Source: Anaerolineae bacterium (lineage in GTDB: Bacteria > Chloroflexota > Anaerolineae > SpSt-600). Taken from it: a DNA stretch of 64,000 nucleotides. The DNA lies in NCBI GenBank assembly GCA_025062375.1, contig JANXAG010000001.1, positions 50,922-114,921 on the forward strand, in the 5' to 3' direction. The notes beneath the pieces are model-generated. The model was not told the origin of the DNA. It did not search any database and worked only from the letters and a program-made list of their open reading frames with translations. Both the position numbers and the translations under genes were made by a program. Every line of letters begins with the position of its first letter. The stretch's first letter is position 1. Shown one piece after another: positions 15,073 to 20,164 of the stretch.

Positions 15073-16368
15073 TTACTTTCGGGCCTTGCCCCATTTCTTT
15101 AAGAGAAGGGGCCCACCGTAACGGGAGGACAGGCCCAGTTCTTCTTCTATCCTCAGAAGTTCATTGTACTTCGCTACCCTTTCGCTCCGACAGGGAGCCC
15201 CTGTTTTTATCTGACCAACTCCTGTAGCAACAGCGAGGTGAGCTATGGTTACATCTTCTGTTTCGCCGCTGCGATGGGATATTATAGCTCCCCAGCCTGC
15301 CTCCCTGGCCAGATTTACTGCTTCCAGGGCTTCTGTAAGGGTGCCTATCTGATTGGGCTTTATGATGAGCGCATTAGCCAGGCCGAGTTCTATCCCCTTC
15401 TTAAGCCTTTCCACATTGGTTACGAACAGATCATCACCGACAAGCTGGACCTTACTTCCAAGCTGGCTGGCAAGAAGTTTCCACCCATCCCAATCATCCT
15501 CGGAAAGTCCATCTTCAATGGAGAGGATGGGGTATTTTTCAACCCAGCTGGCATAAAATTCCACCATTTCCTCTGAGGAAAGAGTTCTTCCTTCTTTCTT
15601 CAGAACGTAGCGACCGTTCTCGTAAAATTCAGAGGCCGCTGAATCAAGGGCCAGAAAAACCTCCTCTCCAGGTTTGTATCCCGCCTTCTGAATGGCTTCC
15701 AGGATGAGTTCCACCGCTTCTTCGTTAGCTTTAAGGGATGGAGCGAACCCCCCTTCGTCCCCCACATTGGTGTTATAGCCCTTTGAAGCCAGAACTTTCT
15801 TGAGGGAGTGGTAGATTTCAGTTCCCCAGCGAAGGGCCTCAGCGAAGCAGGGCGCTCCCACAGGGACTATCATAAACTCCTGTAAGTCTGTTGAATCAGA
15901 TGCGTGTTTGCCACCGTTCAGGATGTTCATAAAAGGTACCGGGAGAAGAGAAGCGTTAAGTCCACCAATGTAGCGGTAGAGAGGTATTCCTAAATGGTTA
16001 GCAGCTGCCCAGGCAACGGCAAGGGAAACCCCAAGGATCGCATTGGCCCCAAGCTTGGATTTGGAAGGAGTTCCATCCAGCTCCAGAAGACATTGGTCAA
16101 TCCCCTTTTGATCGAGGGCGCACATTCCTTTCAGTTTAGGAGCAATAATCTTTTCCACGTTTTCTATCGCTTTAAGTACTCCCTTGCCTCCATAACGGGT
16201 TTTATCGTCATCTCTGAGCTCGAGGGCTTCGTAAGCTCCGGTAGAGGCGCCGGATGGGACAGCAGCCCTTCCCCACGAGCCATCTTCCAGGAAGATTTCC
16301 ACCTCCACTGTGGGGTTACCCCTTGAATCCAGGATTTCCCTCGCTTTAACCCTTTCAATCCTGCACAT
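15073..16368 (-). CDS. eno: Enolase (phosphopyruvate hydratase)
   Basis: Enolase signatures '[16 protein letters not shown]', 'SHRSGETED' and '[11 protein letters not shown]' are present. Confidence 0.95.
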
Positions 16369-16379
16369 ATCTCCCTCCT

Positions 16380-17186
16380 TCAGTCAGGGATAGAACGCAA
16401 GCTTTTTAGATAAAGTATGGCCTCTAAAACGCCTCCGGCTACAGAGAGTGATTTATCGGATATAGTGAAGCAATAATCCCTTACGCCTCTGGGGTCTACA
16501 TCCCCTACTTTCATACCCTGACGAACTTTGAGGCCAGGGTAAAGGATACCCCGGAGCACCCCTTTGATTCTGGCTTTAATTGCCACGCCATTTACTTCTG
16601 CGACTGTTTCCCCTTCTTCTACGAAATCGCCAATCTCCTTCAGAGGGCGGAAAGTTCCATCCGCTGGAGCTCGCAGGACCCGGCGTTCTGTTTCTCCCCC
16701 CACTTCTCCAGGGATTCCGGTGTTGGGTTGGGCTTGCCCCTTTAGGATTACCCGGCCCAGATAATGGCCTCGGTTGGTCTCAATCACGGCGTGGCAATCT
16801 GCTCCAGCGGTGAAACCAGGCCCCAGAGCTATGACTATTGGGGCATCGTTTATGGAAGTCCCGGTATTGCGTTTGGCCATAATTGCATCTACCAGAACGT
16901 GAGGTTTAAGGCTTTCCCGAATGCAAGTTTCAGGGTCCACGATAACGGGAATTTCACCCCTTTCCCATGCTTTGAAGATTTCCTCCAGGCTTTCTACCCG
17001 GCGGGCTGTTATACCTTCTACCACGTGAACGCCCGAATAAACAGCTTGAGCGAAAGCTACAGCTCTTCTTATAGCTGTTGGACAGGGTATCTCGGTCATC
17101 GCAATTAGCATACCAGCCCGGTGAAGCCTGTAAGCTACACCGGTAGCGAGGTCTCCAGCGCCTTTTATAAGGACCTTCAGAGGCAT
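16380..17186 (-). CDS. XdhC-like Rossmann protein, probable YqeB/EF2563-family selenium-dependent molybdenum hydroxylase system accessory protein
   Basis: An N-terminal '[15 protein letters not shown]' Rossmann motif and a central '[27 protein letters not shown]' block are present. I assigned the family from memory, not from a search. Confidence 0.45.
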
Positions 17187-18043
17187 TTTTCCACCAGTTC
17201 AGCTACTTCTTCGGGATAAGAAGCCACAGGGATACCTGCCGCTTTGAAGGCTTCAATTTTTTCCTGGGCTGTGCCAATTCCCCCTTCAATGATAGCTCCA
17301 GCATGGCCCATCCTTTTTCCTGGAGGTGCTGTTCGCCCAGCTACAAAGGCCACCACTGGTTTGGTCATATTGGAGGAAATAAACTCTGCTGCCCTTTCCT
17401 CGTCCCTACCCCCAATTTCTCCGATGAGGACCACCGCTTTGGTTTGCGGATCTTCTTCAAACATGCTCAAAACCTCAATGAAATCAGTGCCCACCACGGG
17501 GTCACCGCCTATTCCGACAGCGGTGGATTGACCTATGCCCCGTCGGGTTAAGGCGTAGACTACTTCGTAGGTCAGAGTTCCGCTTCGGGAGACAATCCCA
17601 ACAGGGCCAGGAATATGAATGTGTCCTGGCATTATCCCTACTTTTGCCTCTCCGGGAGTTATTACTCCAGGGCAATTGGGGCCAATGAGCCGGCTCCCTT
17701 TGGCTTTGAGGTAGCTTTTTATTTTCACCGTTTCCTGCACTGGGATCCCTTCGGTTATGCATACTATAAGGGGTATCCCGGCATCGGCGGCCTCGTATAT
17801 GGCATCGGGAGCGAAGGGGGCAGGGACATATATTGCGGAGGTGTTGGCACCTGTAGCCTCAACAGCTTCTTTAACTGAGTCGAAGACGGGGATCCCCTCT
17901 ACTTCTTCACCCCCCTTACCCGGAGTAACTCCTGCCACCACTTTGGTCCCATACTCTATCATTTTGCGGGTGTGGAAACGGCCCTCTCTACCCGTTATGC
18001 CTTGGACTATAAGTCGGGTGTCTTTATTTACAAGGATTCCCAT
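17177..18043 (-). CDS. sucD: Succinyl-CoA synthetase (ADP/GDP-forming) alpha subunit, no adjacent beta subunit
   Basis: End-to-end similarity to SucD: the CoA-binding '[12 protein letters not shown]...GVTPGKGG' and the catalytic phospho-His context 'GHAGAII'. No sucC lies on either side. Confidence 0.85.
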
Positions 18044-19457
18044 TTTGTCTCCCCCGTTTGTAACCTGTTAAGGTTTTCCATGCCACTTTTACAGTTCTGG
18101 GCAAATCGAGCCAGGTGCGTTTACGGGTAAGGGCTTTGAGGATTCGCCGGGGCCGCAGATAAAAGCGCCGGTATGCTTCCCTCCATTTTCTTTCCACCAG
18201 TTCGGCAGGCATACCGGGCATTTCAAAATGGGCTTTGCCTTCAAAAAAGGCAAAATCATCCCAATCTTTAACGAGAAGCTTCCCTTCTCTTTTCACAATT
18301 TCGTACATTTCAGTTCCTGGGAACGGGGTAGCAATAGAGAAGTTAGCCACCAGCGGGTCAAGCTCTATAGCGAAACGTATGGTTTTCTCCATTGTTTCTT
18401 CAGTTTCACCGGGGAGCCCTATGATGAAAAAGCCTATAGTTTCTATCCCTGCTTCCCTGGCCCACTTGAAAGCTTTTCTTATTTGTTCCAGGGTGAGCTG
18501 TTTATGGATGACTTCATCCAGTATGCGCTGGTCGCCACTTTCCACCCCGAAAGCCACCCGGATGCAACCAGCCTCTCGCATTTTTCGGAGGAGTTCCTTA
18601 TCCACCAGATTGGCTCTTATCCCATTTATCATTATCCAGGGGACGTGGTTGAGTTTCTCTTTAATAAGTAGGTCGCAGATTCGGATGACCCTTTCCCTAT
18701 CCACATTGAAAGTATCATCCAGCACACCTATCTCCAGTGCTCCCATTTCCTTTACGAGCCAGCGCCATTCGGCCAGGACGTTTTCAGGAGAACGCATCCT
18801 CCAGCGACGTGGGCTTATTTGACTGCAGTAGGAACAGCGGTATGGGCATCCCCTGGAAGTCATTATGGGAAAACTTCTACCCCTGGGCAAATGGTCTATG
18901 GTGGGCTGAAGGTTGGTGTAAAGGTGCAGTTTGAAGGGACGATACGAGGGAAACGGGAGGGAGTCCAGATCCACAACTACGGGCCTATCGGGAGTAGAGA
19001 CGATTTCTCCAGAGGCAGTGCGAAAAGTTAGCCCTGAGATTTCTTTGAGGGCATGGGGGTCAAAGCCCTTTTCCAGAGAAGAAACGAGCTCTTCCCAGGT
19101 TAGTTCTCCTTCTCCCCTCACCACTATGTCTACGGCGGGATGGGAAATGGATTCTTCGGGCATGATAGTGGGGTGAACCCCTCCGAGCACTACCGGGACA
19201 TCCAGAACTTTTTTAACCCTCTCGGCGGTTTTCCAGGCCATTTTTATCTGCACAGTGGTGGCTGTTATCCCCACCACTTCCGGCCTGAATTCTTCCAGGA
19301 TCTGCTCTAAGGGTTCGGGATCCACTTCCCCATCCCAGACTTTTACCTGGTCTCCCCGGCGTTCGGAAACAGCGGTGAGGTAGGCAAGCCCCAGAGGAGG
19401 GGAAGCCCTCGTTTCAATTGGGATATTGTAAGGTGGGTTTATGAAAAGGACCCGCAT
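18024..19457 (-). CDS. Cobalamin-binding (class B) radical SAM protein, function unassigned
   Basis: An N-terminal B12-binding-like domain ('[10 protein letters not shown]...VVLGGVHPT') is followed by the radical SAM motif 'CPYRCSYC' (CxxxCxxC). Confidence 0.8.
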
Positions 19458-19471
19458 TTATCCCCTTATTT

Positions 19472-20164
19472 TCAGAGAATTTTGTAAGAAGCCCTTTCCC
19501 CCAGTTCCTCCAGACCCAGAAGAAGCTCCTGGCTTCCGCCTCTGGCAACTATGTCCCTCAAAATGCGATAAAATAGGAGAGCAAATTCATCCTCGAAACT
19601 TTCAAACCTGAAGTATTCCTGATTTTTCTTTTCTATATACATTCCTCCAAAAGCGCAAATCACATCGGGAAGAAGTTCCATTGGGTAATCGGATATGGGC
19701 GGGCTAAGTTTTTTGCGGAGCGTGGATTCTCTGACACTGGGTCTGAAGGCGAGCAAATAGGTACTGATCTGAGGAGCTGCGCTTTTTATCGCCGCGAGTG
19801 CTTTCAGAGAGTTCTCCATAATTCTTGGAGCGAGGACAGGGATTATGTCTCCCACCGCAACAACGCCTTCCAGCGGGAGGACCCAGTTATCATCAGCCCT
19901 GTATATGGGGGCATAAAGGTAAGAGTCATACAAGATGAGGTCAAAGTGGGGTACAAACTTTTGAGCCTCAGGACGAGCTTTTAGAGGGAGCACGAACCCG
20001 GAAGCCACAGCCCAGCGAGCGGGAAGGTAGGAAGCCACGAGCTCTCGGAAAGCTTTGGGGCTTTTAGCGGCCTGGAATTGCGTTAACTGGATATAGATTA
20101 AAGCATCTATCCGGGAGAAGAAGGCAGCGGGATCAATCCCAAGCTGTTCTTTTACGGTTAACAT
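19472..20164 (-). CDS. Hypothetical protein, first gene of the rSAM/sucD/yqeB-like/eno minus-strand cluster
   Basis: Clean 230-aa ORF with no recognisable motifs. Coding is supported only by ORF length, by its position 14 nt upstream of the rSAM gene, and by the fact that the only other ORFs across this stretch are short opposite-strand ones. Confidence 0.45.
   Translation of the reverse strand: MLTVKEQLGIDPAAFFSRIDALIYIQLTQFQAAKSPKAFRELVASYLPARWAVASGFVLPLKARPEAQKFVPHFDLILYDSYLYAPIYRADDNWVLPLEGVVAVGDIIPVLAPRIMENSLKALAAIKSAAPQISTYLLAFRPSVRESTLRKKLSPPISDYPMELLPDVICAFGGMYIEKKNQEYFRFESFEDEFALLFYRILRDIVARGGSQELLLGLEELGERASYKIL

Follow-up and report, generated by a model that had tools for sequence, protein, structure and literature searches.

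A minus-strand cluster of sucD, yqeB and three further genes in an Anaerolineae genome, probably a lineage-specific operon of mixed function

Gene content and layout of the cluster

The window analysed here is a stretch of 64,000 nucleotides (nt) of contig JANXAG010000001.1, which belongs to a metagenome-assembled genome (MAG) of an Anaerolineae bacterium. Five open reading frames lie on its minus strand at 15073-20164, in the order DUF6602 gene, class B radical S-adenosylmethionine (SAM) gene, sucD, yqeB and eno. The sucD gene encodes the alpha subunit of succinyl-coenzyme A (CoA) synthetase, and yqeB belongs to the genes for the maturation of selenium-dependent molybdenum hydroxylases. The five genes and the putative signals flanking them are listed below, with the profile or scan behind each assignment.

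19472-20164, minus strand: gene 1, DUF6602 protein, 230 amino acids (PF20247)
18024-19457, minus strand: gene 2, class B (cobalamin-binding) radical SAM protein, 477 amino acids (PF02310 and PF04055)
17177-18043, minus strand: gene 3, sucD, 288 amino acids (TIGR01019, NF004230)
16380-17186, minus strand: gene 4, yqeB, 268 amino acids (TIGR03309)
15073-16368, minus strand: gene 5, eno, 431 amino acids (TIGR01060)
20194-20223, minus strand: best sigma-70-like promoter match, TTTGCA-18-TATAAT, 10/12 (promoter scan)
14981-15003, minus strand: weak hairpin GGUGCUG...CAGCACC, ~-12 kcal/mol, then a pyrimidine-rich tail (inspection of the sequence)

The intergenic distances in transcription order are +14, -20, -10 and +11 nt. 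The sucD start overlaps the stop of the radical SAM gene by 20 nt, yqeB overlaps sucD by 10 nt, and 11 nt separate yqeB from eno, which has a strong Shine-Dalgarno sequence (GAAGGAGGGAG). Plausible Shine-Dalgarno sequences are found 5' of the start codons of all five genes. The promoter match lies ~30 nt 5' of gene 1, inside a 276-nt divergent intergenic region shared with xpt, and is suggestive of a promoter upstream of gene 1. The hairpin is located ~70 nt past the eno stop, where a gap of 247 nt precedes the next gene. It is a possible candidate for the end of the transcription unit; the consensus terminator scan made no call there. Searches for tRNA genes and Rfam families gave no matches across the window.

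SucD is canonical by every comparison made. It scores 462.2 bits with TIGR01019 (cutoff 353.2) and 461.5 bits with NF004230 (cutoff 336), contains the CoA-binding Rossmann domain PF02629 (111 bits) and PF00549 (90 bits), and carries the catalytic phosphohistidine loop GHAGA in the context MGHAGAII. More than 100 Anaerolineae SucD proteins match it with 74-80% identity. Comparison with 113 other Anaerolineae SucD proteins showed that 147 of the 149 columns conserved at 97% or more are kept, and that the two deviations, K43R and D104E, are both conservative.

YqeB matches TIGR03309 with 387.7 bits (cutoff 220) over profile positions 1-255 of 256; a Pfam search of the protein gave no domain match. 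An identical protein carries the name YqeB at NCBI. In the AlphaFold2 model of the window protein (predicted local distance difference test score, pLDDT, 93.9), the N-terminal domain is Rossmann-like and the C-terminal one is a barrel that resembles biotinyl/lipoyl domains; to our knowledge, there is no solved structure for the family. The model agrees with the similarity to AccB that was noted for the YqeB of C. difficile (PMC11448449). The selenium-cofactor trait consists of SelD, YqeB and YqeC (PMC5029168), the maturation set of the selenium-dependent molybdenum hydroxylases (Haft & Self 2008, PMC2276186; Peng et al. 2016, PMC5029168; Johnstone & Self 2024, PMC11448449).

The radical SAM protein comprises a B12-binding domain (PF02310, 84 bits) and a Radical_SAM domain (PF04055, 103 bits), and its C204-x3-C208-x2-C211 motif is invariant in 29 orthologues. 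This architecture of a B12-binding domain and a radical SAM domain with CxxxCxxC is shared with HpnJ and BchE, the best curated models. However, the window enzyme falls far below both equivalog cutoffs (227 bits vs. 577.6 for HpnJ, TIGR03471; 220.7 bits vs. 481.35 for BchE, TIGR02026). More than 100 database clusters are found at 64-69% identity, which places the enzyme, on sequence grounds, in a very conserved Anaerolineae family. The enolase is unambiguous (TIGR01060, 680 bits). The DUF6602 protein passes PF20247 marginally, with 31 bits against a gathering threshold of 27. Its matches in PADLOC to nucleases of the PD-(D/E)xK and NucC types are weak (PD_DExK, 34.8 bits; NucC effector, 28.6 bits), and the former supports the PF20247 assignment. 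The protein is rare, with 30 matches at E<=1e-3 among 1.84 billion representatives. In close relatives it is 74-83% identical, compared with 87-94% for the other four cluster proteins; judged by these identities, it evolves faster than the other four.

An earlier note, made from the DNA letters alone, had described five minus-strand genes at these coordinates with spacings of -20 to +14 nt, and both were reproduced here. Profile hidden Markov models (HMMs) confirmed all the gene names that it gave, including SucD, which lies above both cutoffs and has the GHAGA motif, and the YqeB/EF2563 family, for which an HMM check had been proposed. The note was also right that sucD has no sucC beside it and that no xanthine-dehydrogenase-like gene is adjacent. 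The cluster locus lacks an adjoining beta subunit gene. Searches by tblastn with SucC from three Anaerolineae and from E. coli gave no match in the window or the following 10 kb, nor at the loci of close relatives; matches of ~50% identity that the E. coli query gave on loci bearing sucC served as the positive control. Pfam scans of nearly all the window proteins found no ATP-grasp domain. Similarly, representatives, with confirmed identities, of YqeC, XdhC, the molybdenum and flavin adenine dinucleotide (FAD) subunits of the xanthine dehydrogenase family, MocA and SelD had no real match in the window, and neither yqeC nor selD was found in the window or in the 10-kb extension past its end. 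The sole molybdoenzyme nearby (24764-26779) belongs to the dimethyl sulfoxide (DMSO) reductase/formate dehydrogenase superfamily, with bis-molybdopterin guanine dinucleotide (bis-MGD) as cofactor.

Contexts of the cluster genes in other genomes

With 34 aligned YqeB orthologues as the query, a set with a single genome for each GTDB species was scanned, and the best 80 loci (53-88% identity) were compared. The order DUF6602-radical SAM-SucD-YqeB-enolase is retained in one of them, L003, an Anaerolineae MAG with a YqeB of 88% identity. In the remaining 79 loci, the 10 kb to each side of YqeB contain neither SucD nor a radical SAM protein nor enolase. The neighbours of YqeB are instead of the molybdenum hydroxylase type. 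Crude clustering, which gives lower bounds, found YqeC in at least 33 of the 80 loci, XdhC family proteins in at least 25, a molybdenum subunit of the xanthine dehydrogenase family in at least 17, MocA in at least 10, and an FAD subunit and SelD in at least 6 each. One orthologue (72% identity) overlaps moeA, and another (66%) is preceded by hypD, hypE, xdhC and a transporter gene. A third (L172, 75%) has only 70 nt upstream before the contig ends, which makes this side uninformative. Thus, YqeB orthologues elsewhere adjoin YqeC, XdhC, MocA, SelD and xanthine-dehydrogenase-family genes, as expected for the selenium-dependent maturation set, whereas these partners are not found in the 74 kb covered here. 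In C. difficile, too, yqeB is dispersed: neither yqeC and selD nor the hydroxylase genes adjoin it, yet the bacterium needs it to grow on xanthine and urate in a selenium-dependent manner (PMC11448449). Some genomes carry YqeB or YqeC homologues but an incomplete selenium-cofactor trait (PMC5029168).

At a locus of Anaerolineales (L008:5966-16559), genes for a molybdenum subunit of the xanthine dehydrogenase family, YqeC, XdhC and YqeB are directly followed by those for IorAB (indolepyruvate:ferredoxin oxidoreductase), an ADP-forming acyl-CoA synthetase and an aminotransferase. A block for molybdenum hydroxylase maturation therefore abuts one for aromatic amino-acid fermentation at this locus. 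L008 was considered as a second pairing of SucD with YqeB and rejected: the SucD-like match is the fused ADP-forming acyl-CoA synthetase of the aminotransferase-IorAB block.

SucD relatives of 78-80% identity were inspected in three independent lineages. All three have a sucC-HIT-sucD operon, which runs on into ferredoxin and korABC (2-oxoacid:ferredoxin oxidoreductase) in two; the third lineage is represented by short contigs with no ferredoxin or korABC on them. The operons are located as follows.

L165:6405-8867: sucC-HIT-sucD
L167:6329-8867: sucC-HIT-sucD
L174:162-2627: sucC-HIT-sucD

The SucD proteins of these canonical Anaerolineae operons are 75-80% identical to the window SucD and match it in length (288 amino acids), domains and phosphohistidine motif. 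However, sucC, HIT and kor genes are all absent from the neighbourhood of the window sucD, which sits between the radical SAM gene and yqeB. In all three lineages the HIT (histidine triad) gene lies between sucC and sucD and overlaps or abuts both.

The radical SAM family was scanned on metagenome contigs, and 80 loci were returned (52-92% identity). The cluster is retained in three of these, all at 92% identity, and is absent from the other 77. Downstream of orthologues with 62-68% identity, a glycosyltransferase family 2 (GT2) gene and an LPG_synthase_TM (flippase-like) membrane gene are typical (L086-L118, e.g. L096:10001-12455). The genes upstream often encode MutS2 and two membrane proteins, one GT87-like and the other phosphodiesterase/sulfatase-like. 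The family is likely involved in an uncharacterised modification of the envelope or of glycolipids. We take the GT2 and flippase-like neighbours to resemble loosely the hpnI/hpnJ/hpnL arrangement. A hopanoid system of the HpnI/HpnJ/HpnL type was nevertheless rejected, as the GT2 and membrane partners do not match the HpnI and HpnL models and the radical SAM protein lies far below the HpnJ cutoff.

Some further observations concern class B radical SAM genes. More distant relatives (52-58% identity; L132, L150, L124, L135 and others) are arranged as tandem arrays, each with two to five class B paralogues, and some of these arrays also hold a SPASM-type radical SAM protein, RtcB or a metallophosphoesterase. 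The window itself encodes a second class B radical SAM protein at 38332-40062 on the minus strand, a full member of the uncharacterised family TIGR04190 (Ta0216; 648 bits vs. a cutoff of 500), which adjoins an MFS_3 transporter gene and an arginase-family gene.

A partial form of the cluster is found in L163 and L164, from a Chloroflexi MAG. The contig begins inside the C-terminus of the radical SAM protein (90% identical), which is followed by SucD (87%), a gap of 77 nt and YqeB (80%). Downstream of YqeB, an ABC-F ATPase on the opposite strand takes the place of eno. A small clade therefore has the radical SAM-sucD-yqeB core in common, and eno can be missing.

Origin of the cluster and alternative explanations

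Genes are very tightly packed throughout the window. Counted on longest-open-reading-frame gene calls, 38 of the 46 same-strand adjacent pairs are separated by no more than 20 nt (median 3 nt); 19 pairs overlap. Nine runs of at least three same-strand genes are formed at such gaps. The run adjoining the cluster consists of seven genes with gaps of -11 to +12 nt, and its members are functionally unrelated:

20441-29485, plus strand: xpt, PHP phosphoesterase, MiaB-like protein, RmlD, GT2, bis-MGD oxidoreductase and P-type ATPase, in this order (profile searches)

Overlapping operons of mixed function are thus the normal style of this MAG. The tight spacing of the five-gene cluster is uninformative, because 38 of the 46 same-strand pairs in the window are equally close.

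The earlier note had called it unexplained that SucD, a radical SAM enzyme and a protein of the cofactor-maturation type are combined here. The comparisons give no support to a meaningful combination, since 79 of the 80 YqeB loci and 77 of the 80 radical SAM loci lack it. The synteny comparison that the note had proposed showed a sporadic arrangement, an outcome that it had named as refuting, and the nearest SucD proteins outside the clade are encoded in canonical sucC-HIT-sucD operons. Among these loci, the adjacency was found neither retained in distant genomes nor arisen independently: all those that keep the whole cluster are at least 88% identical. The cluster thus does not qualify as a conserved functional unit.

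With high confidence, we interpret the cluster as a lineage-specific operon of mixed function that resulted from rearrangement, whose members have separate standard functions and are likely co-transcribed. A rearrangement in one narrow Anaerolineae clade would have joined five functionally independent genes. In this process sucD would have been detached from its usual sucC-HIT-sucD operon and yqeB from its usual molybdenum-cofactor and hydroxylase neighbours; the remaining members would be a rare gene of putative nuclease fold (DUF6602), a class B radical SAM gene that elsewhere lies with genes of presumed envelope or glycolipid type, and eno. The five genes would probably be transcribed together from a promoter 5' of the DUF6602 gene, and translational coupling is suggested by the overlaps between stop and start codons. 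This would reflect the very compact packing of the genes in the genome. SucD would form succinyl-CoA synthetase with a SucC encoded elsewhere, YqeB would help to mature a molybdenum hydroxylase encoded elsewhere, and enolase would act in glycolysis. A partner sucC is very probably present elsewhere in the genome, because the window SucD is canonical and highly constrained.

Several results weigh against this interpretation. Neither sucC, nor yqeC, selD or a xanthine-dehydrogenase-family gene, was located in the ~74 kb of the MAG examined, a region that amounts to ~40% of one contig. The promoter and terminator scans returned counts equal to the shuffle expectation, which bears on the co-transcription part. 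The radical SAM-sucD-yqeB core survived at least one nearby rearrangement in L163/L164, and its persistence there could reflect selection beyond shared descent alone. However, identities of 80-90% need no more than shared descent.

The persistence in L163/L164 despite a replaced downstream flank, together with the stop/start overlaps of 20 and 10 nt, would also suit a genuine functional module of the radical SAM protein, SucD and YqeB in this clade, in which, for example, CoA or phosphohistidine activation by SucD and a radical step would feed YqeB-dependent cofactor maturation. No biochemical mechanism has been assigned to YqeB (PMC11448449), and the YqeB of L008 lies 2.6 kb from an ADP-forming acyl-CoA synthetase. 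However, that synthetase is part of an aminotransferase-IorAB-acyl-CoA synthetase block, next to which lies a canonical xanthine-dehydrogenase-type/YqeC/XdhC/YqeB block. Gene overlaps are normal for this genome, each of the genes has a different recurrent context elsewhere, the sequence of SucD is canonical, and nearly all the YqeB and radical SAM loci lack the adjacency. Such a module is very unlikely. Highly improbable, too, is a variant in which sucD was captured into a radical SAM-sucD-yqeB operon kept by selection through rearrangements, with SucD or SucCD supplying an acyl-CoA or phosphoryl-transfer step used with YqeB, whose modelled domains are Rossmann and biotinyl-carrier-like. The lack of sucC in the 64-kb window, the adjoining 10 kb and the loci of relatives would be accounted for if SucD were a true orphan, with sucC lost in the clade and SucD in a new role or with a new partner subunit. 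The negative search, however, spans only that ~40% of one MAG contig. The mean identity between the clade SucD and other Anaerolineae SucD proteins is slightly below that of the latter among themselves (75.8% vs. 79.6%), a comparison biased by its set, which was chosen as the best matches to the window SucD. The retention of nearly all the near-invariant positions, the conservative nature of both changes and a score above the equivalog cutoff argue for an ordinary SucD, and the parts for ATP-grasp and succinate binding are missing from an alpha subunit on its own. We regard a true orphan as very unlikely.

As the source is a MAG, the cluster might also have come from a chimeric contig produced by assembly or binning. 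This is effectively refuted, because assemblies of other samples, made independently, have the same gene order and junctions (L003, L083, L084 and L085, and partly L163 and L164); the GC content is also even over the region. The reading as a rearranged operon of mixed function is thus retained.

Neighbouring genes and biological meaning

The first gene of the adjoining plus-strand run, xpt (20441-21031; TIGR01744, 238 bits), encodes xanthine phosphoribosyltransferase and is divergent from the cluster. This purine-salvage gene lies ~3.3 kb from yqeB, and its proximity is probably coincidental. At 1146-2672 on the plus strand, the window encodes an archaeal-type phosphoenolpyruvate carboxylase (PF14010 PEPcase_2, 630 bits), for which the called start codon probably differs from that of the recorded protein.

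All five genes of the cluster belong to described families, and their neighbourhood offers no transferable functional signal. The cluster has little biological weight, and its analysis is useful as a negative result. Where Anaerolineae genomes are compact, neither overlaps between stop and start codons nor dense packing on one strand can be taken to show that genes share a function, and an 'orphan' sucD can arise merely from the break-up of a local sucC-HIT-sucD operon.

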